Part shown: positions 8,440-61,733 of the stretch, one piece after another
How positions within the stretch are numbered: the first letter of the stretch is position 1
Layout: every line of letters begins with the position of its first letter
Source: Amoebophrya sp. A120
Lineage: Eukaryota; Protista; Dinoflagellata
DNA length: 64,000 nt
Assembly: GCA_905178155.1 (NCBI GenBank)
Contig: CAJINV010000010.1
Location: forward strand, 2,472,466-2,536,465
Direction of reading: 5' to 3'
Made by a program: the position numbers and the translations under genes
Notes under the pieces: generated by a model
Told to the model about the DNA's origin: nothing
Seen by the model: only the letters and a program-made list of their open reading frames with translations
Database searches by the model: none

Positions 8440-11018
8440 ATGGCCGACGCCTTCCGTCTTTTCCTGGAGTTTTGCTGTGCGAGCTTTCCGATTGTGCTGT
8501 TCTCCGCGCCCGTAACGGTGTTTTACGAGCAGAGATATGTCACGAAGCAGCCGAAGATCGACATGCCGCCCCTCCCGATTACCGGAATGATCATGCAGTG
8601 CGGGCTGTGGCTGCCGTTCTGCATTTTGAACGAGCTCCACGAGGGGACCATTCCGAACGTGTGGGGGGTCGTCGCCGGGGTCGCGTTTCTGGTGCTGTAC
8701 AAGAAGAATTACAAGTATGAGAGTGCTGCACAACTCCCCCGCCTCTCCCTCATTTGTATAGCATGAACGGCAATACAAGCGTCAGCAAGAGTGCCGGCTT
8801 TGCATGATAGATTTGCACAGGAGTGTGCGACTGTTTGGGAAGATTCCGGAGTTTGTCATGCATAATTAATAGTGACAGGAGGGACAGTCTGGAGTTGGTG
8901 TTTTGCATTAGAAATGAGAACGAGGGGGAGCTGTGCACTGTCATAACAGGCCGGAGGTGTACGGGAAGGAACTGTACTGGCAGACCATCGGCATCTTGGC
9001 GATTATTGCGAGGAAAAATCCTTCCTCCCCGTATTGAAAAGGACGTTTTTGATGCTGGATTGGTGTACACAAATCGACTTGTATTGCTAAAAGGCCAAGG
9101 GACATTGCTGTGACCACCTGAATTGCAGGCAATTTGTCATCAAGGTGTTTCCCGCTTCCACTCGCCTCCTGTCATGCGGAAGATGCAAGGCTTTCCCACG
9201 CCAGCCAGCACTACAGTCTGTCTTTTGTTCTAGCATGGCAACGTGGTAGCAAATCATGCGACACAAATCACCGCTTTAGTATGGGGAGAGGGGATTTTTC
9301 ATTTTGATAGCGATGATCTTTTCTTTACTCGTCGTCATGCTCCTCATCGCCGTCGACATTATGGATGACGAAGCGCAACAGGACCTGTTCGCAGCCACCG
9401 TCGGCTACATTGCCTGCTGCGTCTCCTGCGTGTTTCTCGCGCACCCGGTTATCGGGATGGTGCGGACCGTGTTGACGAAGAATGTGAACGTGATGGGCTC
9501 CTTCGCCATGAACCTGGTCGCGCTGCTCGCCGTATCAAATGCAAAAATGTCTGGGTCGGGGAGACTCCGAGATTTGTCATGCAGTTTTTCCAAGCTCCCT
9601 CACGTCTGGAATGCAGGGCCTAGCGTCACAGGTTCTGCAGCTCCTTGGTCATGCGTATTCTGGATGAGAAATGCACTCTCAGCATGGCCAGAAGTGGGCA
9701 CCTTTTGCACGTTTATGCATCACAGATCTTATTTGTAGTATCCGAAACACGCATCACAAGTTCGGATCCTTCCAGACCCAGACATTTTTGCATTTGATAC
9801 GCTGGCACAGTCTGGATCCTCAACGGGGCTTTGTTCGTACCCGACGAAGTGAAGGCGGTGATCATCACCCCCAACGCGTGCGCCGTCGTGTGCAACGTCG
9901 CGGCGTTTGTTGCCCGGTGGAAGCTGCGGAACGAAAAACCACTACCCGATTTATCAATTGCAAAAATGTCAGGGTCTGGGAAAATGCAAGATTTGTCATG
10001 CTTGTCTGGCATGACTGTTAATTCTGTGATGCTTAGGCGCAAAAAGATCTTCTTGCCTGTCATGCAAAAATGGAGCCTGCCATGCGGATTACGCAACACG
10101 CAGGAGCTCAAAAACTTGTCATGCGCGGTCACCGATTGCAGTGAGCTCATTGTTCACAGACTTGCATCACAAGTTTCTAGACCCAGACATTTTTGCATTT
10201 GATACGAATCTGTGTTCGACGAAAAGATTGCCGCGAGTGACAGTTTATCAACTGTAAAAATGTCTGGGTCTGGAAGAATCCAACTTGTCATGCTGATTTT
10301 GGATTCTAAAAAAATCTGTATTGCATGAGCAGCAAAGAGAGTCCAAGTTTTGCTACACGGACGGAGCATTTGTCATGCGGTATAGGCATCAGGAAGCCCT
10401 CACAAAATCTGTGATGCTAGGGCATGCATCACAGACATCAGGAGTCATGCAAAATGTGCATGACAAGCCTGGCAATCTTCCAGACCCAGACATTTTTACA
10501 TTTGATACAGTTGGCTTTTGAAGTGTCTCTTCGGGAAGGGAAAGGAGCAGGACGAGATGGCCAGCAGCGTCGTCGTGCCAACGGGGGAAGGAAGTACTAG
10601 GACAAGCGGAGGAAATAAAGTCGACGCGGGAATAGATTGTACAGCAACGGCTGTCGATCTGGAAGAAGTGGCGGAACAAGGAGGTGGTAATTCTTCAGCG
10701 TTGGGTGGAACGACTGCTCTCACGACAGCCAAGGAGGACAAGTCTTCTTCTGCGACCTTGTCAACGACGGCGGAGTATGAATTGCAAAGGTATCGCACTA
10801 ATAGAATTCTTGCAATACAAATTAGCTCAGCATGACAAATAGATTTTGTGATGCGGATTCAGCTCAAGAAAGAGATTTGTAATGCATCTAATGGAGCTCA
10901 AGAACGAACCAATTACTAGTACTACGAGTGCGATACTTTTGCAATTCATACGGAGCTCTACCAGCTATCCGCACCGGAGGAAGAATTGCAGGGAGGGGGC
11001 GACGAGGAGGCTTTGTAG
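8440..11018 (+). CDS. SWEET: SWEET/MtN3-family sugar transporter, 6 exons
   Basis: Two MtN3-like repeats: VLFSAPVTVF..TK....MPPLP....MQCGLW....IPNVWG and VFLAHPVIGMVRTVLTKNV..M....GTVWILNG....IITPNACA. Removing introners 8716-8945, 9004-9309, 9533-9799, 9952-10204, 10246-10507 and 10776-10950 (each plus one 5-bp TSD) gives one frame ending at TAG 11016-11018. That is six elements, so seven coding segments if all are introns. Confidence 0.85.
8716..8945. mobile_element. Introner family B (representative; ~210-250 bp)
   Basis: TIR TATGAGAGTGC(TGC)ACAACTCCCCC. Other copies: 36713-36961, 49235-49480, 58183-58390. Confidence 0.88.
9004..9309. mobile_element. Introner family C (representative; ~300-335 bp, ~13 copies)
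   Basis: TIR TATNNNNNGGAAAAATCCCCCCTCCCCATAT. Other starts: 23941, 27572, 29418, 37077, 38831, 43619, 45016, 45396, 47843, 50618, 52208, 53993. Confidence 0.9.
9533..9799. mobile_element. Introner family A (representative; ~250-295 bp, ~31 copies)
   Basis: TIR TATCAAATGCAAAAATGTCTGGGTCTGGAA. Other starts: 9952, 10246, 12744, 13645, 17286, 17907, 23122, 23410, 28685, 30394, 30749, 31237, 31679, 35727, 37848, 39248, 40272, 41265, 44018, 46831, 47143, 48846, 50996, 51452, 52617, 54360, 55603, 56692, 58529, 60619. Confidence 0.92.
10776..10950. mobile_element. Introner family D (representative; ~145-175 bp, 8 copies)
   Basis: TIR TATNNNNTGCAAAAGTATCG(T/C)ACTCGTA. Other starts: 19156, 31054, 40086, 44598, 46519, 51965, 63524. 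Confidence 0.9.
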
Positions 11019-21459: not shown

Positions 21460-24400
21460 ATGACTACGCGCGCCGGCAAACTTGGTTCTTGTTCTGCGGT
21501 CCTCTTCCTACTCAGTGCCGCGACTGCGGTTCTGGGTCAGGGCGCCCCCGACTTTCAGACGGTTCTCGGCGGATTTTACACCGATCCCAACCACTACAAA
21601 CCGGGCACGCTGTATGATGCAAGAAGAAAAACTGTGTCAGTGTAGATTTGTGTTGCAGATTACTCGAAAAACCGTAATTAGCGGCTAAGTTGGTACGGCC
21701 CACAGAACAAGAGCAAGCGAATGAAACTTTTTCCGCACGACTGCTAGCTCCTGCATTCTCCGACTTCCCGAGCTAAGTGCTGCAGGATTTCTCTCCTTCT
21801 GCTTTTTCCCTGGGGAAAAAACCGCGCGCGTCCGTACTTGAGATTTTGCGTTTTATTCACTCGATGACGATGATGCGCAAATGCAAAAACTGTGAGGCAT
21901 AAGTTCCCTAATGGCGCGTGCCATTAGGGAACTTATGTTTTTGCATTTTCGAAAAACATAAGTTCCCTATTGGCACGTGCAACTAGGGAACTTATGGCTC
22001 GAGATTTTGGGTTTTTCTTTTTTTTCACTCCATCCTGCGAAAAGAAAACGCAAAAACTCTGAGGCATAAGTTCCCCAATGGCACGTGCCATTAGGGAACT
22101 TATGTTTTTGCATTTTCGAAAAACATAAGTTCCCTATTGGCACGTGCAACTAGGGAACTTATGGCTCGAGATTTTGGGTTTTTTTCACTCGATGATGCGC
22201 AAGTGGAAATGCAAAAACTCTGAAGCATAAGTTCCCTAATGGCGCGGGCCTTTAGGGAGCTTATGTTTTTGCATTTTCGAAAAGCATAGAAATAGATATC
22301 CTATTTGAGTGCGTAAATAGGAAGCTAGTCCTTTGATGAAGCTTTGGTTTTTTTCCGCAAAGGGAGCGCTTTGAAGCTTTGGCTTTTTTCCGCAAGAATA
22401 GAAAGGGAGCGCCTCGCCCTGGTGCAAGGGTTTTCATTTCTGCTCGTGTCATGGGGACCACGCACGGCGCGACGCAATAGCTTTCTTGTTTTGTGGCTCG
22501 GAAAGAGTTACCACTTTAGCCGCTTATTACGGTATGCCGAGTATGCGAGAGACGCTTACATTTGTCATGCTGGATAAGTAGTATGTGTTGCCACACGCTG
22601 TTTTTTTTGCATAGGTGCAGCTTTGCAGCCCCGTGCTTCCTACGCATGACAAGTTTTTTCTCTCCATACGCTGGAAGGTATCCGGTTGATGGGCTTTCCC
22701 GCCACGCCCGGTTCTAGCGAATTCGCCTTCACGGGGTCCGACGACTATCCAATGTAAAACGTCCCTACGAGGACCCCGGAGTTGTCATGCAGATTTGCAA
22801 TTACAGGAACAGTTGTTATGCGCATCCCCATGAGCAGAGGCATTTCCAGTCGTGTTTCGGCACTTGGAATGCTCCAAATAGAATGAGGAAATGTGATTGT
22901 GATGCGGCTGTCCTTGATGAACTGCACTTCTGCAGTACATAGTACAGAGAAGAACTTGTTGAATCATGCGTGACTCGTCCCAAAACTTCTTCTGGACTTG
23001 TGTTGCCAAGTTAGTACGTAGTCTCCAACATCTTGACTATGGGGTCCTCGTGGGGACGTTTTATTTACACAGGATAACGACGGGGCGAAATTTTGGAAGG
23101 CGAGCGGCAAGATTTTGGACATATCAACTGTAAAAATGTCTGGGTCTGGAAGAATGTATGTTTGTCATGCTTGTCTGGCATGACTGTATAAATCTGTCAT
23201 GCACGTTACCCAAGAGCTCTATTTTTCTGTGATGCAGAAACGCAGTTTGTCATGCAGAATAGGCAACACCTAGAAGCTCAGAAACTTGTCATGCTGAGCC
23301 AGCACTTGTGGCCTCATCATGAGACGCCACCCAGCATCACAAGTTTCCAGACCCAGACATTTTTACATTTGGTAGGACAGCGCGGAGTGGGAAACGAAGA
23401 AGCTGGTCATATCAACTGAAAATATGTCTGGTTCGGGAAGATTGCCAGGTTTGTCATGCAGGTTTCGGATCATGCCCCAGAAGGTCTGGAATACGGGTCT
23501 AGCATCACAAATCTACTTGAGAAGGCTTCTGAATGCCTAATCCGCATGACAGATTCCCTGTTTCGGTCACAAGAAATGGGCAACCTTTGCTGTCCATGCA
23601 TGAAAGATTTTCGTGTGATGTGAAATGCGCATCACAAGTTTGCATCTTTTCAAACCCAGACATAATTTTGCAATGCATAGGTCAAACTGCAAACGAACTT
23701 CCATGAGAAGGGCGCGCCGGCCGATTATCACACAGAAAAAAGCAGGCAGGGCATATTTGTTTTGCGAAATTGAAATTATAGCAGAAAAATTTGTCATGGG
23801 CGAGCTTGTAGCGTGCGGTTTATGATATGCAATACAGATTTTTTTGCTTTTTAATTTTTGAATTACAAATCTGACCTGCCTTTTTTTTTCTGTGGGATAC
23901 CGATTTTGCAGAGTTCAAGGGAACGTTTGACGGGGTCACCTATCAAAAGCAAAAATCCCCCCTCCCCATATCACAACGGAAATCTGTGATGCGGGACTTG
24001 TGTACACAAATCACATCTGTCTTGCAGTGAGGCACTGCAGGCAAAGCCCAAGCCTGTGCAGGGGTGCTTTGGCGTAGGTGCTTAGCATAGCAGAGGCCTT
24101 CCATGTATCCGTAACAGCATTGCGAATCGCCTGTATAAGTCGGCGGATTCTTTTGATCTACCCCCTTGCAAGAGAGACAGGGTTTGCGGTCACAAATCAG
24201 CATGACAACTTTTTAGGAGCATACATTTTCAGTATGGGGAGGGGGGATTTTTCCTCACAATATCACCGGAAGAATCACCTGGCAGGACGGCAATGCCTGG
24301 GTCCGGCAGAAGGAAGTGAGTTTGGACTTCGCGGGAGGGAGCAGTGGCGCGGGCTCGAGTACGGATGCTACTGCTGCTGCTGCTGCTGCAACTTTGGCTG

Positions 24401-26472: not shown

Positions 26473-29400
26473 TTGATCTCCGGCTTCGCTGGTTCCACCA
26501 TCAAGTTCCTGTTGCCCTCATTTGTATCCGGCGGCGGCACAACCGCAAGAGCCTCAACATCTCCGTCGGGGGCGGATGAACAACAAGCCGGAAAAATTCC
26601 TACTCCAGCTAGCACTTCTGTGGCAGGACGACACGACCAAAAGGGGCAGGACGCGTTCCCGTTTTCCACCGAAGCCGCTGGGGAGACGACGACCGAAGTG
26701 AGAAGCCAAGCAAGTTCCTCCGCCACCACAGTCGGGGGTGCTGGAGGTTGTACAACTGCAGCTGGTGCTTCTCCGTCGTGCCCTGCTGAACAACACACGC
26801 CGGATCATCTTGTTCATGTTGACACGGAGAAGTCACCCTGCCCTCGGAACAACGGCCGAGATGATGATGCTGATGCGGCAGTGGTGACCCCACGACTGTT
26901 CTTCTCGCGCACGGCCGAGGACCACAGCGAGGACGAGTGTGCAGCAAGCCACAGTGCTGACGAGCAGGAAAGAGGATATCATAATGGCAGTTTAGTTACA
27001 ACTTCCTCTACACGACCACCGCTGCCCCCACCGCCACCGTACGAATATGTCCAGGCTGCTGGCAGAACAAACCCAGGCTCCGGTGGAGCCGGGGCCGCGG
27101 GTGCTGGTACTAATACTACCGTAGAACTGCGACATCAAGGCGGTGGGCAAACACGCCCGGCCAGCAGCCACAGCGGCATTCAACACGACCGCGCAACGAC
27201 CCAGCTGCCACGAACATCGACCTCGCCGAAGCAAAAACCGTCTGCAGCGCCGGCGCGGAACGACGGCCAGCTGGTGCACGACCACCCGGGCAGCACTTGT
27301 TCTGCGCACGGTCGTGCAGGCGCTCGACCTCCAAAGGGGAGAACAGGAGTAGGTGGAGGCGGAATTATTTTCACTGCGCGCAGAACAACAAGCGAAACTA
27401 CAGGTGGAAACCAAGGAGGCAACCATGTTGGGGTCGCGCAACCACTGTTGAAGATGCCCGGAGGTGGTGGTGGTGGTGGTATTCTAGTTGCCGGCACGGC
27501 CTCCAGCAGTGCAGCCACCCATGATCCACAGCGAGGGCCTCGGGACCACGCCGGAGCGGTAGTACCAGAGGTATCGGAAGGAAAAATCCCCCCTCCCCAT
27601 ATCGAAAAGGGACGCCTCAGAGAATTTGTGATGCTGATTTGTGACCACAAATCGTGTCTGTCTTGCAAGAAAGCAACGGCATGGGCTCCGCGCCAGTATG
27701 CAGGCGGTCTGTAATGCTGTTGGTCCTACAGCATAGAGGTTCCTCATGCTAAGCGCCTAGGCCAAAACCTCTGCGCATGGGCATGATATGGGCTTGCAGT
27801 CTTCTACTGCAAGACAAATCCAGCATCAGAAATTTCGTTTTGATGTGGGGAGGGGGGGTGTTTCATTTTGATAAGAGGGGTCAACTTGCGAGCCATTCGA
27901 TGCCGTGTGGGACCTCATATGCAAGAAAAAAACTGTGTAAGTGTAAATCTGTGATGCAGAAAATGCAAAACTGTTACATTTGTCACGCTTGACATGCATG
28001 ATCGGCTCCCTTCCTAGGTGTTTTCCCTTCCTATCTGCGCATAACAAGTTTTTCCTGTCATGGCAGACAAACTTGTGATGCAGTTTTCCAAAAAGAGTTA
28101 CACTAACACAGTTTTTTTCTTGGATACCTTATTCGGAAATACGATAGTGGACAACTGCTCTCCACCCTTTGTTCGTCCCTTCTTTCGAAGATTGATATGC
28201 GAAAGTGCAGCTTCAATCGCTGTTGCCGTTTTTTAGCCCTGTTGACTTGCATGACAAAGACCTCGTAGCTCAACACTGCGAAGAGGAGCAGCACTACAAA
28301 TCGTTCCCGAGCAGAGGTTTGTGCTGCGGAAGCTACGTTTCAACATCTGCGCGATTGTTTTTAGTTTTTGTTGCAGCTTCTCAAGCTCATACATCGCATA
28401 AGAGTTGTGAGGGACCACGAGAGGGGGAGCTGCAGGTGTCCACTAGGATAAGAAGGATCCCGGAGCGCTACAGGGAGTCAGCGAGGCTTGTCGCGACAAT
28501 TTCTACATCGTGCTGGAGGCCGTCAGGTTCGAGGAAGTTCCCAAGGCTGCTGCAACCTCCAGGGCGGATGAAAAGGAGAACTACAACGGGGAAAAATCTT
28601 CCCGCGTTTGCGTTTCGTTCGGGCTTCTCCGCTTTGCCTCGCCCCGGTTATAGGACCATCGGGACGTGGTTCTTCGCGCGGTGCTATCAAATGCAAGTAT
28701 GTCTGGGTCTGGAAATAACTTGTAATGCCGAGTTGTGAATAGTGAATGCACAGCCAAGCATGAGAAATATTTGCGCGGCTTAGTGTTGCGCTTTCGGCAT
28801 GACAAACTGCGTTTTGCGATGGCAAGCAAGAGGGTTTCTTCTTGGACACGCATCACACACTCTTCAGTCGTGTCAGACAAGGATGACAAACCTTGCATCC
28901 TTCCAGATGACCCAGACATATTTGCAATGCATAGGTGCAGCGGGTGCCGCACAACCTGCAGTTCGCCTCCGCCCGTTTGCGCGACGAGGAGGAGCTTGTG
29001 AGAACCGCTCTCGCAAACTTTGGCCCTGCTCTGGAGTTCGCGTCCGAGCGACTCCAAAGCCTCCGCCCCGTGGTCGCGTTGGCCATCGCCGGGCCCGCGC
29101 TTTTCCGGTACCACGGACACGCAAACGGTCCGTGCGTGCCCATCAGTTTCGCTGCCCCGCACCTGCGGGCGGACCGCGAGCTGGGCTTGGAGGCCGTGCA
29201 GCGGTGCGGTAGGGCGCTGCAGTTTCTCGACTTCGAATTGCGGGATGACGACGAGGTTTGCCAGATGGCGATCGCCGAGGATGCTGGTGCCTTCGCGTTT
29301 GCGTCCGACAGATTTCGGGAAGCGTATGAAGAAAGCCAGAAAACGGCGAGCATCTTGGCTTGGGCGGTCACGGGGGTTGCGTGCTTGCTCGGCGTCGCCG

Positions 29401-32400
29401 CGGTGACTCTGGCTCTTTATCAAAAGGAAAAATCCCCCCTCCCCATATCGAAAGGACATCCATCCGAAAATTTGTGATGCAGATTTGTGGCCACAAATCC
29501 TGTCTGTCTTGCAAGCAGCGGCATTCACGCTGTCCGCCACGTTATGCAGGCGATTTGTAATGCTGTAAGGCCTACAGGGTAGCCGTCTACCATGCTAGAG
29601 GCCTACACCAAAAGGCTCCTACCTAGGCTTAAGATCTGCGCGCAGTCCTCTACTGCAACACAAATCTGCTCTGTGTACTCAAATCCAGCAGCAGAAATTT
29701 CGTTTTGATATGGGGAGGGGGGATTTTTTCTTACAATACTCTTGTAGTGGTGTTTCATTTCCTGCTGGCGCGAGGACCCTGCAGTTGTTGTTGTTGGCGT
29801 ACTAGAGCGACGAGAAATTATTGCGCGGAAGAGAACTACGATGATGAAAACGGCGCCTGTATAAGTTCTAGTTCCGGCGGCCAAGTAGAAGGACCAGCGG
29901 ATGATAATTTGCTACTCGGACCACGAACAAAAGGCGCAGGTGCACCAGCAGCCGATCCAGCACTGCAAGAGTCTGGCAGTGCACCACCACCAGGGGCGGA
30001 CCACGACAGTACAGGACGACCGGCCCCCGCTACAACAAGAACTACTACGGCAAGCACTATCCGCCCACCAGCCCCGGTTGCAGCCGCCGCCGGGAAAATA
30101 CTAACGAAGATCCGATTTGATAAAAAACGCCGGCGGTTCGTTCGGGTGCACGGGTGCCTCCAAAGGCAGCAGAAGCAGACAAAAAAGGAGCGGAAGATTT
30201 TATTTCCGAATAGTACTTCATCTAAAGCGGTGACGGGTTGTAAAAGTAAAGATGCACTTGTTCCTCGTCCCGCCCGGCCCGCGCCACCGCAGCCGGTGTT
30301 TCGCACCGCCGAACACGCGCCCGCTCGGGTCCGGGTCTATGAGGCTCTGGAGCGAGGTTCCGGGGGGCCGGCGCGCGGACGCTGCTTCGAGATTATCAAA
30401 TGCAAATATGTCTGGGTCTGGAAGGTTGGAAGACTTGTCATGCAGGTTTTCCACGACGCGTGAGGTCTGTCATACATGACCCAGCATGACAGATTCTCCC
30501 CGACCTCTATCATGCCTCGTCTGCATGAGAAACCCCCTCTCAGCCTGGTCAAAAGTGGACAGCTTTTGGTAATCACGCAACACAGATTTTTGCACTATCC
30601 AGAATTAGCATGACAAGTTGCCTTCTTCCAGACCCACACATATTTGCAATGCATAGAGATCCGGATGGCGCAAGACGATCCGGAAGTTTTGCCGGCGGAA
30701 ACGCTGGCCGCGAAAAGGAGATTACTGAAGCAGGAGCAGAAGTGGCAGTATCAAATGTAAAAATGTCTGGGTCTGGAAGAGTGCATGTTTGTCATGCTTG
30801 TCTGGCATGATTCTCAAATCTGTCATGCACGTTACCCAAGAACGCCATTTTTCTGTCATGCAGAAACGCAGTTTGTCATGCAGAATAGGCAACTACACCT
30901 AGAAGCTCAAAACTTGTCATGCTGAAACAGCACTTGTGGCCTGCTCATGATATGCCACCCAGCATCACAAGTTTCCAGACCCAGACACTTTTGCAGTTGA
31001 TAGGCAGGAAAGTCGAGCAAGAACTCCCGGTGCAGCCGCGAGGACCATCCTGTTATCCTGTGCAAAAGTATCGTATTCGTATTGCAATCATGCATTACAA
31101 ATTTTCTTGTTAAGTCAAATCCGCATTACAAATTTTATTTCTAATGCTAAGGAAATTTGTAATGCATTTATACGAGTACGATACTTTTGCAATCCATACC
31201 TGTGGCAGCCGCACGAATTGGTGCAATTCCAGTCGGTATGGATTGCAAATCTGTCTGGGTCTGGAAAGTTGTGATGCTAAAATGCGCATGACGAAAACGC
31301 TCCCTCATGCAGGAGAGCATGACAAGTTATTCGCAGAACGCTTCCTCATACGCGCTCCGCATGAGAAACTGCGTTTTTGTATGACAAGCGAGGCTGTGAC
31401 TTTTGTGGGTCATGCAATACAGATCTCACAGGAATGCAAGACCAGCATTACAAGTTCCAACTTTCCAGACCCAGACATTTTTGCATTTGATAGTCGGTGC
31501 GCCCGGGCCAGTACGCGCGTGCGCTCAGCCTGGTGGACCAGGATCAGGAAGCGCTGCAGGAGGCCTGGCAGCACCTCTGCCAGCTGCAAGGGGCCGTTTC
31601 CGTGGTCGACCACGGGGACGAGAGCTTCGTCGGCCACGTGGGCGGGGGCGAAGAGATTTATGGTTCCCAGTGGTCAGATATGAATTGCAAATATGTCTGG
31701 GTCTGGAAATCTGTGATGCTGAATTGAGCATGATTGAAGCGCTTTCAATGGCAGCCAGGCATGACAAGTTTTAGAGGCGCCTGCTGATGCCTACCACGCA
31801 ACACAAATTGCGTTTTTGCATGACAAAGCAAGCTCCTCTTTTGCTGCTCATGCAACAGAGATTTTCCAGGAATGCAAGACACGCATCACAAGTTCCACTG
31901 TTCCAGACCCAGACATTTTTGCATTTGATATCAGAGCCGAGATCTATTTCTCGCGGAGGTGGTGTAATTGCTGTCGAGAACAGTGGTTGTAGTACTAGGA
32001 CTAGCCCCCGCGGCTGCCGGGGGAACACGAAGAGCACTATCCTGAGTAAAAACGTCCCCACACCAGAGTCAAGGTGGAAAATCTGCTAGACAAATCTGTC
32101 AGCTTTTGCTGTTGCGCATGACAAGTTTGGCATCGTGGTGTAATCCTGTTTAGCTAGTTCAGAAGCATTACAGATGAAGCATATCATGCTGATTCTAGCA
32201 TGACAAGTTCCCAAATACGAATAGAAAATGCTTCTTATGGGGCTCCGCATGACAAACGTTTTTGGCATGCAGATTTGCATTACAACTCTGGGGTGGGGAC
32301 GTTTTTACAAATGATAAGCACTGCGTCTACTTCATCGACGATCAGGGACGATGTGGAAGTAGTGGGTGGCGATGACGAGCAGAGCAAGCAGCCTGTGTTT

Positions 32401-32484
32401 GTGGAAGAGAAGCGTACAGCTCCCGCTGCAGTGGATCCTGTAGGCAGAAGTAGTTGTACCTCTGAAATAATTCAAAACATTTAA
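26473..32484 (+). CDS. DUF4116-repeat membrane protein, 12 coding segments; true start uncertain; one in-frame TAG at 28651
   Basis: Typical repeats ALQGVSEACRDNFYIVLEAV, LQFASARLRDEEELVRTAL, LEFASERLQ, FAAPHLRADRELGLEAVQRCGRALQF and a TM segment ILAWAVTGVACLLGVAAVTLALVVVF. The frame is continuous after removing introners starting at 27572, 27918, 28140, 28685, 29418, 30394, 30749, 31054, 31237, 31679 and 32038. Confidence 0.7.
27918..28126. mobile_element. Introner family F and relatives (representative; ~175-240 bp)
   Basis: TIR TAT(G/C)CAAGAAAAAAACTGTGTAAGTGTAA. Copies at 21613, 55069, 56424 and 60375. Related minor families start at 23726, 44336, 45719, 55303 and 63239. Confidence 0.85.
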
Positions 32485-32794
32485 TTGGCCTAGGGGGTAA
32501 AGTCAATGAAAAAGAAAATGAAATAAAGCGCCCACCTCATATAGTCTGATAATCGTTTTCTTTTCACGATAGTTGTATATTTATTGTCATTCTCAATTTC
32601 TAGTAACGCGAAGAAGAAGTTTGCGCTATACGACCCCAAAGAATTCTTGACGGATCATAGATAGTTGTACCCCTAGTATTTGATAAGCTTCCCATGATCA
32701 TGTTTTGACGTTTTGCTCCGCCATTCCAGTGATATACCAGTCGATTTGTAGTATAGAGTCAGTCCGAAGTAAAAGTAAATTCGCGTGCACGACC

Positions 32795-33748
32795 ATTTGT
32801 AGTCGGTAATCAATCGTTGCGTTCGGGCCCGGGGGGGCGACAGCCCCCCCGCCCCCCCGGGCCCGGCGAACCCGCTTCCCATTTGCGAAGCAAGGAAGCG
32901 ACGGCGGATGACCTTACGGGGGATCTAGATGGAACAAAGGGGCGCCCCCCAAAGTGGGGCAGTAGCATCGAGGGAAGGGCTTGCTAAGCTGGAACCGGGG
33001 TCGGCCGCGTGGGCGGCCAAAAGGTGCGCCAAAAACGCAGCCTCCCACCGGGGGAAGGTGCAAAAATGACGATTTTTGCGTCCATAGGCGCATTGGTATC
33101 CGAAAAATGCGAGTTTTTTTATGTCGCGAATCCCCCCGGTACGCTTGCGAAAAAGTAGCGAACTTGGGCCCTCCGTGGGTCCGCAGTAGCATCGTCTTTC
33201 GCAAGAAAAAATTGAAAAAATGAAAAAAAAATCGCCCATTTGTAATGGGCCTTGCGCTCAATCCGAAATTTGTCTTGCCGCCAAACACGGCGGCACGCTG
33301 AAAACTTAGTCAGCGTATAGTCGTGTTTAGAGGTGTAACGTTTTGCCATTTCCGGGACGGAGGCCTCCGCCTGATCAAGCGGAACAGCATCGCGTTTGAG
33401 GTGCAAAAGCGCCCTCCGCAAAAATGCAAAAAATGAACGAAAAAAAGCCGACACGAAAATGAGCAAAAATCACGCGCCCGCCATACCGTGCGGGGTAACA
33501 TTAGGCGCGACGGTATGGCGCGCCAAAATTTTTGGATTCTCGCGCGACCGCCCCCGCGCAGCCCGTGCACCGCCCGACCCGCCCCTTGAGGGGGCGGCCG
33601 AACCCGAGCCCGGCCCTCGGCTCAAGAAGAAGGCTTTGCGCCTCCCGTTTTCGCGCGGCCGCCGAAATGCGCGCGTCGCGATTTTTGCTTTGCAACACGA
33701 AGAACGCAACGATTGATTACCGTATCGCCCGACCGGGCGCGGAATTCA
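32795..33748 (+). mobile_element. Non-autonomous insertion with subterminal IR and 3' hairpin, flanked by a 43-bp direct repeat
   Basis: Direct repeat 32752-32794 = 33749-33791. Perfect 21-bp IR at 32804-32824/33702-33722. Terminal TATCGCCCGACCGGGCGCG..TTCA. A-tract-rich interior with no credible ORF. Confidence 0.75.
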
Positions 33749-34474
33749 TATAGAGTCAGTCCGAAGTAAAAGTAAATTCGCGTGCACGACCTATGTGAGT
33801 AGTTTGTTTGTTAGTACATACACATGGCAGTAAACATAGTATGAGAGGACCATCATGGGAAGAGCTGCAAGACCGTGCATCGCACGAGACGAAGTGAGAA
33901 CAATCTTTGCTGCATCAAGGAGCCGCTGCATTCTAGAAGGCTGTGTAAAATAGAGAAGAAGATGAACTACCAGTTGCTTTATCCCAGCCTCACGATAGTA
34001 CTGTTCGCAAATGCCCTCGGTTTTATGCATCTGATAGTACGCCCCTATGTTTATCGGTACGACTTCTCGGTGATCAAGATGATCTACGGTGTGTTTAATA
34101 GGTACTTAACACGCCAGCTCCTTCAAGCTCATCATCGGTCGGGCCTGGAACTGGGTTCCTGCGACATCATTTCGGAAAATTTCTGTGTCGAGTCTGTCTC
34201 CTCGTGACATGATTCCTCAATCGGTTCATCGATAGTAGAGACTCGGTTCTGCAAAAACTCTTGTATTCAGCGACTCGGTTTGCCTTGTCACAACACGGAT
34301 AGATGACGTCCTGTGGAATGTCTTGTATTTGTATTAGTTTGATGTTCAATAATGTCGGTGTGTTGATCTTCTGTAGCTCATGCATAGATAATTGTGATAC
34401 TGCTTCTGGTCTCTATCGACGACTTCAATTCGCGTTGCAAAGCGTATAATTCGCGCGTTATAAAAAATCTGAAT

Positions 34475-35401
34475 CGACGCAAACGCAGCGCGAAGGCTTT
34501 GCCGTTACCATATGGGAGGAACTCGGGGGTATGCAATCACTCGCAAAGTCGGGCATGTCCAATGCGGTTTTGCCGCCAGAGAGTGGATTTCGGAGAAGTT
34601 GGCTCATTTTTTGAAAAAGTAGAGAAATCTGCGCAGGCAGATCGGGGAGAAGGTTAAAAAAAGGACTTTTCCGGCTCCGCCCGATCTGATTCCGAAGAAA
34701 GAAGCCCGATGATTGGACGGCGCCCGATGCTATGGCGCGTTTGGTAGCAGAAATTGCGTCACGTGCAGGCCGCCGCGGCCGATCTGTATCCAAAAAAAAG
34801 AACAAGGAAAAACGCACTTTTTTACAGAATATAATGGGCCCAAAAAATCGACCGATTTTGTGCAGTGCCCAAAAGCCGATAGACATCCAAAATACAGCTT
34901 TTTTTGGAAAAATGCAACACCCGATCTGAAATGGCCGGTAAAAGACGGCTTTTGAATTTGTCACAGGCTTAATGCCGTCGTGATTGAAGGAAAAAAATCG
35001 CGTGTAGATCCTGCGGGGGTGTGTCACACGAGCACGATTCTCGTCCTCTCGGAGGTTCAAAGCGGAACCCCTTCCCCCGACTGGAAATGGCCGATTTGGG
35101 CGGCCTTAAAGGGCCGCCGAAAATGACAAAAATTGTGGAACTTTTTGAAATTTGCGTATTTCTGCTGGATAGCATGCCCTCGTGCATAAGATTATGCGCG
35201 GCGGAGTGCTGCTTGCCAAAAAACGCAGTCTTTTGCGCGCCCTTGCTTCCTGGTTAGAGGATGAGAGCGCGGCCCGAAGCGGGCTGCAGTGTTGGACCGC
35301 GGCCCTAACCAGGAAGTCAAGGGATGCGCGGTAGCCTTCGCACTGACTGGGGTGGTTCGCACGCTTTTGGTTACCAATATCGCCCTCCGGGCGCGACCTT
35401 C
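34475..35401 (+). mobile_element. Related non-autonomous insertion flanked by a ~72-78 bp direct repeat
   Basis: Direct repeat 34397-34474 ~ 35402-35473. It has the same terminal motif TTACC..TATCGCCCTCCGGGCGCG..TTCA as the 32.8 kb element. Confidence 0.7.
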
Positions 35402-36314
35402 ATACTGCTCTCTATCGACGACTTCAATTCGCGTTGCAAAGCGTATAATTCGCGCGTTATAAAAGATCTGAATGATCTCGTTCTCGACAGTCCACTCTTT
35501 TTACGCACAATATACTGTAACACTCATGTAAAATTTTCCCTCCGTTTATGGTCCTCTTGCATCGGGCCGCCCAGCATGTGGGCCCCCCTCGCCCGTTGGA
35601 CTAAAATGAAATTGATGATTCAATATTTATTTTTACACACCTCCACGACCCTACAAACATTCATCCCTCACTTGATGAAGATGCGCTCTTGCTGCAGGTC
35701 GTGGCCAGTGGTTTCTTACTGATTGATATCAATTGCAAATATGTCTTGGTCTGGAAACTTGTGATGCAAGTCAGGGATCAATGCGCGCACTGCAATTTTC
35801 TGCCAAGCATGACAAGTTTTCCGTGGTTCTGAGTTGCGTACTCTGCATGAGAAACCTCGTTTTTGCATGTGAGGCGAGGGAAGCTCTTTGCGGCCACGCA
35901 ATACAGAGCTCAGAGTCCTGCGAGACGCGCACGACAAGTCTCGCAACCTTCCAGAGCCAGACATTTTTGCATTTGATACTCCTCTCCTGCAGGCCGCGGC
36001 GCGACAGGCGGGAAATCTACCGCTTCTTTCCATGGCAAGGAGAAGTCGTGTCACTTAAAAAAAAATGTGAAGAAGTACAAGCTGGTCTTCTTCTATGGAG
36101 AGAAAAAAGCTTGTCATAGTCACTGGCTTGCAGTTTTTGCATGAGAAATTTTTTATGCATCACAGGTTTTTCTTGTATTGCACAACTACATAGAGATGAA
36201 ATCCCATATAAAATTAGACTGTGATGCAATTTTACGCATGACAGAAATTTTTGTATTGCAAAAATGCGCATGAGTGATCGTGACGAACTTTTTTTGTTCC
36301 ATATCTTCAGCAAG

Positions 36315-39300: not shown

Positions 39301-42300
39301 CATTTGGATTCCAAATGCATTGCATGAGCAGCGCATGCAAATTTTTTGCTACCTACGCGGAGAGGGCATTTGTCATGCGAAATAGGCATCAAGAACCTCG
39401 CAAAAAATCTGTGATGCTAGGGCATGCATCACAGACGTCATGGCTCATGCAAAGCGTGCGTGACAAGTCTCAGAACCTCCCAGACCCATACATATTTGCA
39501 TTCGATAGGAGTTGCAGGTGAGCAAGATAATTGAGTACGGCCGGCTGGCAAGCGCAAGCTTTAGCTCGATATCTCACCCCAGAAAAATCTCGGTCCTGTA
39601 CGTGGTGCCGGCAGAAGATCCGCACGGAGGAGGAGGGAGTAGTGGCGACCGCAGCTCTATCGAAAGTAAAGAAAAACGTCCCAGCACCCCAGAGTTGTCA
39701 TGCAAATGATCTGCAAGGAGCCTCAAATGTTTCTCATGTGAAGCGGCCACTATGACGAGATGAGTCATTTATTAATGCTGTGTCTGGCAGTTTGCGATGC
39801 CAGAATCAGGAGAATCGACGATCGATCCTCGACGCCGCGGCTGCACTAGCTACACACGATTAGGAGATTTCTTGCTCGCACAAACTTGTCATGCGCGACA
39901 GCCGAAAGTTGTTGACTTGTGTAGCAAATAAATCCCCATTCCGAATGTGCGGTGGTCGGGGGTTCGTTTTTACTGAGGATAAGCTTGATATCATCCTCAA
40001 GCTACATCGACGAGAACAATGGGGACCAGCACCCCAACACGGCGCGATCGTTTTTTGAGGGACAGACCCGACTCGAAGTGGTTTCTATGAACTGCAAAAG
40101 TATCGTACTCGTATAAATGCATTACAAATTTCCTCAGCATGAGAAATTAAATTTGTAATGCTGACTTACCTTAAGAGTAAGATTTGTAATGCAAGTTTTG
40201 CATTTGTACGAGTGCGATACTTTTGCACAGGACAGTTTCCGCCATGGAGCAACCGGATCAGCGGCTCCGCGTATCACATGCAAATATGTCTCGTCTGGGT
40301 CTGGAAGAGTGCAAGACTTCTCATGCAGGTTCAACATGACGCATGGGGTCTGGAATGCAGGATCTAGCATGACAGATTCTGTGAGATCTGTACCATGCCT
40401 ATCCTGCATGACAAACTCACTCCCAACTTGGTCAAAAGTGGACAGGTTTTGGCACTCGTGCAACACAAATTTTTTCATGATCCAGATTTAGCATCACAAG
40501 CTACACCCTTCCAGACCCAGACACATTTGCATTTGATACCACGTGTATTTCAACGATACCCTGGCCTCTTATGGGGGTTTCAGGATCGAAATCGACAAAA
40601 TCGAAAAACTTGTAATGCGTAAAATGTAGGGCGCGTTGTATAGTCTCCTGTATTGGGGAGCATGCAAATAAGACCGATAATTGCAAGCCTGTTTATAGGA
40701 AGACGATGTGCAGCTGCCAGATTAGCATGACAGTAGCAGTCTTCTTTGCCCAAACAGCATGACAGACCGGATTTTGGTGCTCCCGAAATTTATCATATGC
40801 CCCTTGGCTTTAAAAAATGGCATCGATTTTATGTATATACAAGTTAATTCGATTTTGTCGATTTCGATCCTGACGCTTCCATACCTCTCCGAAAGACTGG
40901 CAAGAGCTGACGGTCGGGGCGCTGAAAGCCTTTTTACCCGGGTACCTGACCGGCGTCGTTGGGTATCAGGTTTGCGTATTCTGAGTAAAAACGTCCCCAC
41001 CCCAGAGGCGTCATGCAAATCTGCATGCTCAAAATGTTTCTCATGCGGAGCCCCATGACAAGCGTTTTCTAATCGTGTTTTGTAACTTGCAATGCTCCAA
41101 TCAGCATAATAGGCTAGAGCTGTGATGCTGCTGAACAAGCTAAACAAGATTACACTACAAAAGCAAACTTGTCATGCGAAACAGCCAAAGCTGGTTGATT
41201 TGTGAGATTTCCCATCTCTGGTGTGGGGACGATTTGGCTCAGGATATTGCGCGCGGGGGTGTCATATCAAATGTAAAAATGTCTGGGTCTGGAAGAATGC
41301 AAGATTTGTGATGCAGGTTTTCCATGACCCATGAGGTCTGGAATGCGAGACCCAGCATGACAGATTCTTTGGGGTCTCTATCATGCCTTTCCTGCGTGAG
41401 AAACTCCCTCTCAACTTGGTCAAAAGCGGACAGCTTTTGGTACGCACGCAACGCAGATTTTTGCATTTAGCATGACAACTTGTAATCTTCCAGACCCAGA
41501 CATTTTTACATTTGATATGTCATCCGCGCCTGCAGAGCCAGGTCGAAGAGAGGCACGCGAACTATGGATGTGTCAGGTTTGAAATCGTCAAAGTTGAAAT
41601 AATAGTTTGTCATGCATAAAACGGATACCAGTTAGGCCTACAGTTTGTAGTCGGTGCATGACAAATTTTCCCGGTCCTGGAAGCGAGTCTCTCATGCGGT
41701 TGAGGGCAAAAGAGCTGCCGTCTGTCATGCTAGTCAGCAGTCCAACTTTTGACCCTTACCAGGACTATAATCTGCCTCCCGTGCGTCCTCTGCAATAGAG
41801 TCACTTTTTGTATCGCATTTTATGCATGACAAATCACTTCTGTAATGCATAAAATGCATGACCCGAGGCACGTGTGTTGCAGAGCAGGTAAGTGAGGCCG
41901 ATTGCAAGCCTGTTCGGGGTTACAGCTCGAGCTGCTAAAGTAGCATGAGAAAATCGCTCTTCTTTGCCTAAACAGCATGACAAACTGGATCTAGGGACCA
42001 CCGAAATTTGTCATGCGCCACTTGAAAACTGGATTCCAACTGGCATTCATTTTATGCATGACAAATTATTTCATTTTGGCTCAAGCGCTTGGTCACCCCG
42101 GGCAAAAACAAACGAGATAAAGTCCAAGATGGGCGTCGCTATAATCCGGGACTAGGGTCTGCAGCTACCGGCGGATCGATCCAGGGCAAGCACGGCGAAG
42201 GTTCTTAACCCTGCCCTTCGGGGGGGGGCGTGCCGCAGGTTTTGACAATCTCGTGACAGAGCGGTCCTGACGGAGCGCCCACTCACTCGACTCGATCCGA

Positions 42301-45300
42301 TCTCTGCGAACTCTCGCAGAGGCTCGCTGTCCCTGTCGTCATGGTGCTCATCCTCGATCCGTAGCCAGTCGGGGACTGTCCACGCCTCCAACCCCGTCTC
42401 ATCACCACACCATCGACGTTTAGCAGATGGTCGTCAACGACTCGGCGCTATGGCGAGTGCGATAACCCGCGGCACCCGACCGCTGAGAACGACGCGCTGT
42501 GCTTAGAGCGGCATCTCTCTCTACAATTACGTCCCGGCCTCAGCGGCGCCCTGCTCTCTGCACGACGTCCTCGTGCTTGCATTCATCCGCGCAAGAGCCT
42601 TCAGCCACCTGCGGCTACACGCGCGCGGGCACCACTATGTAACTACCAATTGACAGATGAACTGAGACAGGTGGTAGTAGCGCCTCGGCTGTCCCTGATA
42701 TTTTGCCTTTGTTGGCGGGACCGCCTTTTCCTCTTTATCGCCCTCGGGGCGTCTGGCCTTTGCATCGTTTGTATTCTGCGGTCCTGCTGTGATTTTGTGT
42801 TGGACAAGACACTGATACAATGCGTCAAAGGCCGATGAGGCTGCCAGTTCTCTCGGCCCGCTCTCATCTGTCAAAACTTTTCCTGGTGCCCCGAGCCCCA
42901 GCATATCTGCGGCGATTATACTCTCTGGCGACACCTGACTGCGCGGCGTTAGGTGCATTAACCCGGACCTGCACCTCCTAATTTTACCGGACCTTTCTAA
43001 ACCTCATCGCAGACTGTATTTGTGCCTGCGGTGGCCGTTGGGTTCCGAATAGAAAATTTTCGTATGCATGGAGTCAGCTGCAGGCTGCTGCTTCCTTATA
43101 GCAGTTTGCCTGGTAGGCTCCTGCACAGTCCGTGAGCGCAATGAGTTGGTACGTTGGCGAACGTTAAACGTACTCTGTTGGCAATAAGTTGGTTTGTTGG
43201 CGAAAAGTAAGGTTTGTTGGCGAACAATAAACGCATCCGTTGGCGCAATGTAAGGATCGTTGGCGAACGTTAAACGTACTCAGTGGGCGAAAAGTTGGAC
43301 TTGTTGGCGAAAAGTATGGTTTGTTGGCGCAAAGTAAGGATCGTTGGCGAACGCTAAACGCATGTTGGCGAAGTGAGGACTGTGTGCGAAAGTAAGGAAA
43401 AGTTGGCGTAAGTGGGATCATGTGCCCGAGGATGATGGTGATGGCTTCGGTCCGCCTGACTCCACGACCTGGTGGCCGAACCATCTGCGGTGAGGTGCCC
43501 TTACAGGTTGTGTAGTGGTTTCGGTCGGTTTAGCATGACAAATCACTTCAACTTTGACGATTTCAATCCTGACAGTTCCATACGAACCCCGCAACGCTGG
43601 AGAAGAAGAACGCACTTGTATTGAAAGGAAAAACTCCCCCTCCCTATATTGAAGCGGTATGTTTCCGAAAATTTGTGTTGGTGATTTGAGGTCACAAATC
43701 ACATTTGTCTTGCAAGAAAACAAGGGCAGAAACTTCCGCCCCATTATGGAAGCGATTTGTCATGCTGTTGGGTCTAAAGGGGAGCCGTTTGCAGCCATGC
43801 TGAACAACTAGACCCATACGCCCCTACCCAGCCTGGGGATCTGGCCGCAGTGCCATCCTGCAGCACAAAGCTGATTTGTGTACACAAATCCTGCATCAGA
43901 AATTCCGTTTTGATATGAGGCGGGGGGATTTTTCCTTTCGATAACTTGAAGATAAGGAGCTGGACCGGCGCGGCTTTGACTGCCGCCCGAGCGTCCGCTT
44001 AGGTAATGCTTTGGTCATATGCATTCTTGCAACTATAGTAACGTCTGGGTCTGGAAATAAAGTGCAGAGTAGTTCTTTGTGATGCAGGTTTATTTGCATG
44101 CCCCAGAAGCAGGTCGTGATCGTGTGGAATTATGCAGGGCCTAGCGTGACAGATGTTCTGTGACTTCTTTATCATGTTGCCTATAATACTGCATGACTAC
44201 TACTGGGTCAAACATGGACAGCTCTAGGTTGTACTAGTCGCGCAACACAGTTTTTGTAGTGTGGCGCACAGGAAGATGCATGGCAAGTCACATGATCTTT
44301 GCAGACCGAGATGATATAGTATTTGCAATGCATGCTATCACAGGAAAAAATTGTCACAGTTCCACATTTGTCGGAATTTCAGCATCACAAAGTTGCCCTA
44401 GAAGGCAACGAAAACTTGTAATGCGCAGACCAGAAGGGAAGACGAAGACCCGCACGAAATGAGGCTGGCAAGCATTTTCTGCATCACAGAGGTTGTCTGT
44501 CTTGCTGGTCTTGCATCAGAGTGAGTAGCTGTGACACTTTTTCCTTGTGATACCTGGGTCACCGAGGTAGGCGAAATGGCCAAGTGTTCCGAGGATTTAT
44601 GCTCTGCAAAAGTATCGTACTCGTAGTAATTGCTATTACGCATGACAAATCTCTTTCCCAAGGTAAAACAGCATTTTACAAATTTCAATTGTAAAAATGC
44701 TAAGTGAATTTGTAATGCAAGTCATACTAGTAGGATGCTTTTGCATTTCATAGGATTTGCAGGTGAGCAAGATAATTGAAGCCAGTTTGATGCTGGCATC
44801 AAAAGCGCAGCTGCACGGTACGAGTCGTGCGTCCTCTGCCACCAGTGGTAAAAAAGAAATAATGCCCGCCGAGCGGTTGTATGTGGTGCCGCGACAGGCC
44901 GGGTTGGAGCATCTTCTTCCGGAGGTGGCTACCACCTCCGCCCTGCTTGGAAAGCCGGCGCCTGAGACCCCCCCTCCGAAAACCGCCCGGGACCTCGTGG
45001 GTTCGCAGGTTGCGCTATCGCAAGAAAAAATGCCCCCTTCCCATACTGAAAAGACATACTTCTGAAAGTTTGTGATGCTGATTTGCGGACACAAATCGTC
45101 TCTGTATTGCAAGAAGGCAAAGCCAGAGACTCCGCCGGGTTGTGCGGGCAATTTGTAATGCTGTATGGCTTGCAGAGGATAAATTTAAATCTCCCTTGCT
45201 AGGCGCCAACACCAAAAAGGCCCAGCTCAGGCTTTGTATCTGCGTGCAGTTCTCCACTGCAAGACAAAGCGGATTTGTGTACACAAATCCGGCATCACAG

Positions 45301-60300: not shown

Positions 60301-61733
60301 GATCCTGTCGCGCCTGAAGTTGATGTACTACACGGCATGAAGATCATCAGGAGCCCTAGTGCACTTCCGGAAGGTATGCAAGAAAAAAGTGTGTAAGTGT
60401 AAGTCTGTGATGCAGAAAATGCAAAACAGTTACACTTGTCATGCTGGACATGCATCAGAAGCTCTTTTTGTACGTGTTTTTACGTACTAGCCGCGCATAA
60501 CAGGAGGCTCTCTCTGTCATGCAGAGAAAACTGATGCTATTCCACCGAGAAAGTGACACTAACACAGTTTTTTTCTTGGATAGAAGGGAGCAGAGGGATA
60601 TTGACCCGCCCCCCACCATATCATGTGCAAAAATGTCGGGGTCTGGAAGGTTGCAGCTTGTGATGCTGTCTTTGGATTCCAAAAGAATCTGTATTGCATG
60701 ACTAGCAAAAGGCGTCCAGTTTATTGTGCTACACGGGGAGAGCATTTCTCATGCGGAATAAGCATCAGAAAGCCTTCTAAAGATCTGGGATGCTAGGGCA
60801 TGCATTACAGACATCATGGGTCATGCAAAATGAAAATATGCAAAAATACGCCCCCTCCTCGGGGGGGGTATAAATTCGGGCGCAATGACAAAAAGAGGCG
60901 GAACGCAGCGAGGAGAGTTGCCTCGCTGACGTTACCGACCCCAAAAAGATCCGTAGCGTAGACGTGCGCACATTGCGCGAGAGATCCAGTAAGCGTATTG
61001 GATGTCCCCCCTCTATTAGATTGTCGTCAAGGATAGTAGCCGATAGCTTTACTGCATTGCCGCCTTCGCGATATTTTTTAGCGGACCCCGCACAAGATCC
61101 CTCATGCGCTTCCCACTTAGTAAGAGTAACACTATGACTAACATTGCAAACACATAGACTCCCCTCGCTTCGGCACACCTCATCTGCCTAGTCGCCCCTA
61201 GGCAGGTGCAGGAATTTTCTGTGTGGGCTTTTTCTGATTAATTATTCCGACAGGGGCTGCGTCTTTTTTTTCTGCCTTGCCAGCAGAGTATGTATGAAAG
61301 GGGGGGGCTGACGGAAGTGGAGCGAGACCTTGGTGCTGGAGCAGGGGACAAGAGTGGAAATGGTACAAACAAAACAAAAGCACCAATATACCCGCGCCAT
61401 CTGCTTAACTGTGTGAATTATTGTGTCGGCCCGGTCCTGTTTAGTCGCAGGTCGGTGTCCGTGAGATCAGAATTCACATGTTAAGTAACGCACACCGGCT
61501 CCTAGATAAAAAAAAATGATGAATTTATATGCGAATGGGGCCCAATCAAAAAAAAAAATATGCATGACAAACCTGGCGATTTTCCAGACCCAGACATTTT
61601 TGCAGTTGATACGCCATCGCACCGGCCGCCCGCCCTGGCAGCACATGATTACTCCACGTCCGCCTTTTCGCCGCCGGCGACTGCCGAGGAATGGGAAAGG
61701 CTACAGATGCTTCGCGGGTACCAAGAGTATTGA
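36315..61733 (+). CDS. Very large putative type-I membrane protein with a duplicated extracellular domain; ~50 introner introns
   Basis: The frame was traced by eye across the introners from 36361 to 60619 and ends at TGA 61731-61733; a few junctions (37077, 51965, 52208) have degenerate TSDs. Hydrophobic N-terminal stretch AAAIFVIAFSAF. Internal repeat VYFNDTLASPK(E/D)W(E/Q)ELTVGALKAFLP...GYQVC...GFDC...AKC(A/S)EDLQVSKII occurs twice. TM LGAVWAVLLVLLVSALAIGGVLVCLYC (~52600-52985). The start may lie further upstream (elements at 35727 and ~36033). Confidence 0.7.
42072..42085 (+). other. Relic dinoflagellate spliced leader (3' 14 nt: CATTTTGGCTCAAG)
   Basis: Exact match to the 3' end of the conserved dinoSL (DCCGTAGCCATTTTGGCTCAAG), located at the left junction of an insertion. 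Confidence 0.75.
43153..43412. repeat. Minisatellite, ~21-bp period, core GTTGGCG(A/C)A
   Basis: About 12 copies of GTTGGCGAA/GTTGGCGCA at roughly 18-24 bp spacing. Confidence 0.8.
45973..46278. mobile_element. Introner family G (representative; ~305-325 bp)
   Basis: TIR TATGGAA(C/G)(T/C)GTCAG(G/A)ATCGAAAT. Other copies: 40570-40883, 41563-43582 (expanded by insertions), 56046-56369. Confidence 0.88.
47445..47759. mobile_element. Introner family H (representative; ~315 bp)
   Basis: TIR TATNNCNNTGAAAAA..CCCC. The second copy, 53592-53909, is in the opposite orientation. Confidence 0.8.
49735..50476 (+). mobile_element. Non-autonomous element (subterminal IR plus 3' hairpin) nested in E-family introner 49564-50589
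   Basis: IR GTAGTGAGGTC 49737-49747 / GACCTCACTAC 50429-50439 and hairpin CCGCCCCGGCGG 50442-50453. It shares the GCCATACCG...CGGTATGGC palindrome with the 32.8 kb element. Confidence 0.65.
58143..58942 (-). pseudogene. Captured 5' gene fragment (MQPQLQQQQQQPLL...) with two intact introners, antisense within an intron
   Basis: The minus-strand frame from ATG 58942 stays open across 58529-58780 (TSD GCCTT) and 58183-58390, then stops 11 codons later in unrelated repeat sequence. Confidence 0.5.
59280..60034. mobile_element. Insertion flanked by a 53-bp direct repeat, with a perfect 48-bp palindrome near its right end
   Basis: Direct repeat 59227-59279 / 60035-60087 (2 mismatches). Palindrome at 59955-60002. 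Confidence 0.7.
60843..61554. mobile_element. Insertion nested in A-family introner 60619-61611
   Basis: Flanked by an AAAATATGCA duplication. Hairpin CCCCCTCCTCGGGGG and a 9-bp IR (60869-60877/61521-61529). A-run at the right end. Confidence 0.55.

Follow-up and report, generated by a model that had tools for sequence, protein, structure and literature searches.

A helically phased internal site common to the examined introner families of Amoebophrya sp. A120, a predicted binding site for a mobilising protein

Introduction

The MITE Emigrant carries subterminal repeats that are bound cooperatively by pogo-like Lemi1 proteins, and the arrangement of the repeats affects binding (PMC1636448). 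In Hermes the STRs are read by the BED domains of a multimeric transposase, and their phasing to the terminal inverted repeat (TIR) has to be exact (PMC10368747). Target-site duplications of 5 bp are described for the hAT5 group (PMC12730594), and TA..TA termini together with duplications of usually 6 bp for IS3EU/GingerRoot, whose fungal members have TIRs of more than 30 bp (PMC10045372, PMC12730594).

For Amoebophrya sp. A120, introners are reported to make up about 17% of the genome (Farhat et al. 2021, PMC7789003). The same article describes their inverted repeats as TAT followed by seven variable bases and at least three A, reports direct repeats of 3–5 nt, and gives a length of about 240 nt for the non-canonical introns. 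U1 was not detected in A120, most of its introns are non-canonical, no transposase was reported from it, and for this lack a general transposase-mediated mobilisation was ruled out by the authors (Farhat et al., PMC7789003). Introner families of about 149, 209, 252–260, 278, 305 and 320 bp were listed for A120 by Gozashti et al. (2025, PMC12130899), whose table also holds a family of 730 bp. An earlier note on one stretch of A120 DNA had claimed that introner families with different ends share an 8-mer, TGT(C/G/A)ATGC, spaced in near multiples of about 10.4 bp. Here we describe this motif in the elements of that stretch and of related contigs.

Results

Delimited elements and their families

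The DNA analysed, hereafter the window, comprises 64,000 nucleotides. It contains 81 elements of 145–331 bp that begin with TAT and end with ATA, fall into 16 families and sum to 20,933 bp. Relaxed matches were added to reach this set, and false candidates at 1078, 21934 and 40101 were removed or re-bounded before the tally. The elements end in TIRs of about 30 bp and are flanked by a 5-bp direct repeat. The terminal logo (162 ends) displayed TAT, seven variable bases and AAA; the TAT/ATA ends were part of the search rule and the A run was not. An exact 5-bp target duplication was found in 58 of the 81 elements, a match at four or more of the five positions in 75, and an exact flanking repeat of 4, 6 or 7 bp in none of the 81, the boundary search having favoured 5-bp repeats. 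The elements are thus MITE-like, i.e. short, multicopy and without coding capacity, with TIRs and a target duplication, and both orientations are present within plus-strand genes. As far as can be judged from sequence, their anatomy matches that of the published A120 introners, and the family lengths in the accessible part of PMC12130899 agree with those found here. Tandem palindromic repeats that do not follow the TAT...ATA grammar were seen at 21876-22288 and 227-635. A 34-bp stretch at 35371-35404 was present in abundant reads of runs X11 and X2-X3; the flanks of these reads lie elsewhere, and the stretch is a short repeat.

A metagenome scan with the family-A TIR pattern gave 143 loci, of which 80, under one assembly prefix, were listed. 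From the listed loci 389 more elements were extracted by TIR and target repeat alone. The pooled set therefore holds 470 elements (81 from the window, 389 from related contigs) and 23 multi-member families. Sequence comparison revealed segments in common between related subfamilies. The inner TIRs vary between families; the internal site described below does not. A TIR scan of viral contigs returned three single matches.

The element at 30749, one of two cited in the earlier note, has the following features.

30749..31002, no strand: TAT...ATA element, a MITE-like introner of window family A1, 254 bp, with TIR pairing and a 5-bp duplication; 14 family members in the window
30744..30748, plus strand: left target-site duplication GGCAG, 5 bp
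31003..31007, plus strand: right target-site duplication GGCAG, 5 bp
30749..30778, plus strand: TIR of the left end, about 30 bp; complementary to the right end at 27 of 32 terminal positions
30973..31002, minus strand: right terminal inverted repeat, pairing with the left end
30790..30797, plus strand: core of site 1, its centre 44.5 bp from the left end
30821..30828, plus strand: core of site 2, 31 bp past site 1 (direct pair)
30854..30861, plus strand: core of site 3, 33 bp past site 2
30874..30881, plus strand: core of site 4, 20 bp past site 3
30915..30922, plus strand: core of site 5, 41 bp past site 4 (39 bp in 10 of 14 family members)
30962..30969, minus strand: site in inverted orientation; distance 47 bp (4.5 turns) to site 5 and 36.5 bp to the right end
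9952..10204, no strand: second cited element, of the same family and orientation as the element at 30749

All motif coordinates given earlier for the 30749 element were confirmed. In the element at 9952 exact 8-mers start at 9994, 10025, 10058 and 10117, and one lies in reverse at 10164; the forward copy at 10078 is a one-mismatch form, TGCCATGC. The two elements, which have the same orientation, are identical in 184 of 256 aligned columns. Because they are homologous members of one family, their matched spacings, put forward earlier as a feature of different families, are no cross-family proof.

A site of about 12 bp shared by the families

The exact 8-mer occurs 235 times in the 20,933 bp of the 81 elements, against 5.1 expected (maximum 11 in 100 dinucleotide shuffles). 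It is present in 78 of the 81 elements and 15 of the 16 window families, as well as in 378 of the 389 elements from related contigs. A weight matrix trained on the window detected at least one internal site in all 470 elements, so that the motif is indeed common to the element families. The 8-mer itself was confirmed as a core, but the site is longer, about 12 bp (RYYTGTVWTGCW), with two positions free to vary. Outside the elements the site is rare: the matrix detected 404 sites in the 20,933 bp of elements versus 14 in six long ORFs free of elements (17,897 bp). The remaining 43,067 bp of the window contain 34 exact 8-mers, mostly in elements with undelimited ends.

The reverse copies near the right end, observed correctly in the cited elements, are not a general feature. 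In the window, all six conserved sites of family C lie on the same strand, its pooled consensus showing one opposite site, and in families B, G, H and I the first site is reverse. The terminal 14 bp faintly resemble the site, in register beside the terminal TA (r 0.52, p 0.02); this likeness exceeds that of shuffles in just 17 of the 46 consensus ends, with a negative median score.

Clusters of sites, several of them 31–34 bp apart, were also observed outside delimited elements, at 16720-16751, 62010-62144, 63279-63428, 52368 and 28252. To judge from their sequence these are likely further or decayed elements, and the matrix can therefore detect elements missed by TIR searches.

The smallest family has six copies of 109–116 bp, each composed of a TIR, one direct pair of sites and a second TIR:

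L014 734-849: copy of the minimal family
L014 2032-2144: copy of the minimal family
L015 259-367: copy of the minimal family
L031 1008-1119: copy of the minimal family
L053 4414-4525: copy of the minimal family
L064 6738-6846: copy of the minimal family

Four elements of about 1–2 kb have the ends of short families and middles of 0.7–1.5 kb without sites. The long elements noted were:

60619..61611, no strand: element of 993 bp, ends of family A2; all sites within 190 bp of the left or 46 bp of the right end
L055 5001-5972: counterpart of the element at 60619, about 1 kb, with A2 ends; the two middles about 70% identical
41563-43582: element of 2.0 kb, duplication CGAAC, ends of family E; the first 500 bp hold ten sites, with a single further one close to the right end
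49561-50589: element of 1.03 kb, ends of family C (left end CAT); about 770 bp in the middle without a site

In the 41563-43582 element the sites are separated by about 1.45 kb without any, which includes a short tandem repeat near 43150-43420. The site-free middles may be later insertions. The pair with A2 ends, each about 1 kb long, represents either a longer family or one insert shared at a single position.

Spacing of the sites and the helical repeat

A direct pair of sites 31–33 bp apart was found in 14 of the 16 window families (2.6 under the null, maximum 8), in 18 of the 23 multi-member pooled families (null 3.6, maximum 10) and in 296 of the 389 elements from related contigs. The spacers within these pairs have no cross-family consensus (information mostly at or below 0.4 bit). 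From pair to pair, the spacings cluster at 79–85 bp.

For the lattice test on the 23 families the 31–33-bp pairs were removed from the distances and kept as blocks in the null. No spacing test used a site closer than 25 bp to an end, and weaker sites that overlapped others were omitted from the lattice tests. The residual same-strand distances had a phase of 10.1, i.e. about 0 (R 0.36, n = 70). Distances between sites on opposite strands had phases of 5.17 bp for plus/minus (R 0.58, n = 55) and 5.06 bp for minus/plus (R 0.48, n = 33). The pooled phasing score peaked at a period of 10.3–10.4 bp with opposite-strand sites half a turn off, both values being fitted on the same families that were tested; as a check on the fitted offset, the plus/minus and minus/plus classes agree on half a turn. 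When a single family was drawn per superfamily, the lattice persisted over 300 draws (median p 0.0017, maximum 0.0067), shared ancestry that escaped the clustering being a possible contribution, and the six families without window members gave only p 0.034.

The lattice is a loose one. Of 158 pairs, 77% fit within a quarter turn and 23% do not; spacings that are conserved yet out of phase measure 18, 39, 49 and 59 bp. Individually, 4 of 22 testable families were significant, and the 21 singleton elements had no lattice (mean cos -0.02, p 0.50). In the window alone the residual same-strand phasing was weak (R 0.12, n = 56). A reading of the window alone as a 32-bp pair with no 10.4-bp lattice was revised when the 389 further elements and the opposite-strand pairs were included. 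A 16-bp lattice rivalled 10.4 bp in score solely through the 32-bp pairs and was rejected. A phase trend of W/S dinucleotides in the spacers was set aside, as it was not centred for the mask. The periodicity of about 10.5 bp, which the earlier note had offered as its own check, was thus found as a 10.3–10.4-bp phase across families, but it is looser than the near multiples of 10.4 bp described there, and the dominant spacing is the 31–33-bp direct pair.

The sites are also placed in relation to the ends. The nearest inward-facing site lies 35.5–36.5, 43.5–47.5 or 56.5–58.5 bp from the end in 29 of 32 ends. With related families collapsed, the end-to-first-site phasing had R 0.75 over 15 values, so few that they fix the period loosely. 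Outward-facing first sites had no clear phasing, element lengths were not quantised (R about 0.2, p about 0.34), and indels had no clear excess at 10 bp. Pooled families with at least five members contained five insertions of more than 13 bp, of 19, 20, 21, 31 and 41 bp, near whole turns but too few to weigh; deletions of more than 12 bp in the same families had no whole-turn tendency.

Sequence constraint on the cores

The earlier note had proposed comparing the conservation of the motif with that of the spacers. Leave-one-out consensus identity in six window families, scored with a leave-family-out matrix, was 0.90 for cores and 0.90 for TIRs versus 0.72 for spacers. In pooled families with at least 10 members the same measure gave 0.90, 0.905 and 0.79, respectively, so the cores are more conserved than the spacers in both sets.

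In trees of seven families, built from the same columns as were scored, the ratio of core to spacer change per column was 0.17 on internal versus 0.46 on terminal branches. The corresponding TIR/spacer ratios were 0.46 and 0.69. Cores thus change 2–6 times less than spacers. Such a pattern would be expected if selection acts mainly on copies that later multiplied, and the terminal-branch ratio of 0.46 leaves room for a putative constraint after insertion too. Among copies sharing both flanks, which would report post-insertion change, a single usable pair (6 mismatches) was recovered, too little for a comparison.

Elements within genes and transcripts

Removal of the 30749 element and seven neighbours, with one repeat each, opens a 590-codon frame at 28654-32481. 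It is the 8-element case among the long plus-strand frames that open in the same way across 8, 11, 12 and 15 elements. Three elements behaved as if spliced. Contigs of X1, X3 and X4 (runs of one sample, presumed to be RNA) skip them along with a single repeat:

29418..29738, no strand: element of family D1; a contig from probable RNA run X1 joins 29412 to 29739 and so skips it along with one 5-bp repeat
31237..31492, no strand: family A1 element, orientation opposite to that at 30749, skipped (31230 to 31492) in probable RNA run X1
32038..32316, no strand: family C element with five exact sites, all on the minus strand, skipped with one repeat (32032 to 32317) in runs X1, X3 and X4

The copy at 30749 was spanned by no transcript contig. 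Contigs of run X5 read from flanking sequence into elements. The raw RNA runs X9-X11 consisted of short pieces, mostly of other element copies, and were uninformative on this locus. In run X2 one contig passes from 32751 to 33749; the roughly 1 kb skipped in this way does not correspond to a delimited TAT...ATA element.

Search for a transposase

A Pfam scan of 123 native ORFs of at least 230 aa from the window and the loci detected no transposase family; host-type domains were found. No autonomous partner was present in 64 kb of window and 573 kb of loci, a sample too small to exclude one. A 4.2-kb candidate at L061 5001-9208 with an 871-codon frame was rejected as an autonomous element, since it consists of two short elements around host sequence. 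The two have the same flanking 5-mer, and the frame has no Pfam match.

Discussion

From its sequence, spacing and conservation we predict that the site of about 12 bp is bound by one mobilising protein, most likely the transposase, and we consider this prediction somewhat better than an even chance. A read-out surface about 2.6 bp off the core centre, for example at the TGT triplet, would produce the half-turn offset expected for inverted copies, and all sites would therefore lie on a common face of the helix. A transposase, either multimeric or acting with a partner, would bind along this face and bend the 110–330 bp of DNA so that both ends meet, followed by cut-and-paste at a stagger of 5 bp. 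This would leave families free to drift in their spacers and inner TIRs while one enzyme moves them all, and splicing would rely on the element ends and not on the internal sites. The protein likely acts in transposition, because the sites are phased to the cut ends and are most constrained in the lineages that multiplied.

That a host architectural or chromatin protein binds the sites instead, joining the ends or escaping silencing while a transposase reads only the termini, we regard as unlikely. The sequence evidence for same-face DNA binding serves this explanation equally well. The site is unlike the termini in most families and stays constant where the inner TIRs are family-specific. One nucleosomal superhelical turn is close to 79–85 bp, the range in which the pair-to-pair spacings cluster, although dinoflagellates are described as having lost nucleosomal packaging. 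General chromatin proteins have a loose sequence specificity, quite unlike a specific site of 12 bp, and the sites are scarce outside the elements. Host bending proteins are admitted in the Hermes model (PMC10368747). The termini faintly resemble the site in register, and the transposase is therefore slightly favoured over a host factor. A broader form of the one-protein proposal appears doubtful to us: a single DNA-binding protein would read a helical grammar (12-bp site, three-turn pair, inverted half-turn offset, turn-quantised end distance) common to all the divergent A120 introner families, loop the elements and possibly mark them for the U1-less spliceosome. If true, one protein would explain the spread of tens of thousands of introns without a recognised transposase, and their tolerance.

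A role in host splicing, in which a factor marks the elements on the template in either orientation and so aids a U1-less spliceosome with introns that are not GT-AG, is very unlikely in our judgement. It would fit the undetected U1 and the mostly non-canonical introns of A120 (PMC7789003), and introns inserted either way need orientation independence. The cores are under-mutated even on terminal branches (ratio 0.46), but the constraint is about three times stronger on internal ones (0.17), phasing to DNA cut ends suits transposition better, and long elements have site-free middles of 0.7–1.5 kb. We give equally little credence to a merely historical pattern, in which one repeat-rich ancestor or module swapping left a motif and spacings that persist without current function. 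Segments are common to related subfamilies, and the 30749 and 9952 elements are homologous. Against this, the spacers of the 31–33-bp pairs have no cross-family consensus and yet cores and spacing are kept, cores change 2–6 times less than spacers, and the lattice persists with one family per superfamily.

The earlier note had left open whether the copies are same-face protein sites or pairing seeds that fold the intron RNA. The former reading survived the tests of phase and conservation; the latter was unsupported and is scarcely probable. In predicted ensembles of 87 elements in both orientations, pairing was commoner in core bases than in spacers (0.74 vs 0.60), and for 0.40 of core positions the partner was another core. 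Inverted pairs 15–17 bp apart could form hairpins, and in family F0.2 an inverted pair at 16 bp had a letter agreement of 0.38 versus 0.26 when permuted. Over 79 inverted pairs, however, the variable positions agreed as in permutations (0.340 vs 0.335; 0.620 vs 0.620), 97 direct pairs likewise agreed at permutation level, and position 4 of the outermost pair in the cited family agreed in 1 of 53 copies. The prevailing arrangement, being direct, is unable to self-pair, the 109-bp family has no inverted partner, and the period matches that of B-DNA. Moreover both orientations occur, family C with 5 and 6 copies per orientation, and its copy at 32038 is skipped. In view of the predicted pairing, the sites may still make a secondary contribution to intron folding.

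With a mobilising protein as the preferred reading, a site shared by all examined families, as constrained as the TIRs and phased to the cut ends, argues that the many 'families' are one mobile system served by one protein. The site can serve as bait for the mobilising protein and as a signature for recognising autonomous elements. Its phasing offers a precise test, shifts of 5 bp versus 10 bp, and the minimal family of 109–116 bp is the best probe for binding tests.

In the A120 literature searched (PMC7789003 and PMC12130899, in the parts available) we found no description of an internal site, a 31–33-bp pair or helical phasing; the supplements and Roy et al. 2023 could bear on this. Emigrant resembles the elements here in being a MITE with repeated internal motifs, both direct and inverted. 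Unlike in Emigrant, as far as it is described in the accessible text, the site here fills the whole short element and is common to families differing in their inner TIRs. The 5-bp target duplication is that of hAT5 in the part of the literature available, but no hAT transposase, with BED and dimerisation domains, was among the 123 ORFs here. The TA..TA termini are those described for IS3EU/GingerRoot; its usual 6-bp duplication differs from the exact 5 bp in 58 of 81 elements and 6 bp in none of the 81. In the elements examined here a conserved motif recurs near the ends, its distance and orientation being fixed relative to the TIR. Hermes, in the available account, likewise has short repeated sites near its ends in both orientations, arranged asymmetrically between the two ends; its site is 4 bp against about 12 bp here, and a 31–33-bp pair rule was not seen for it in that account. 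Internal repeats bound by a transposase are thus a known principle, while the rule set described here and its reach across families appear to be new to print.
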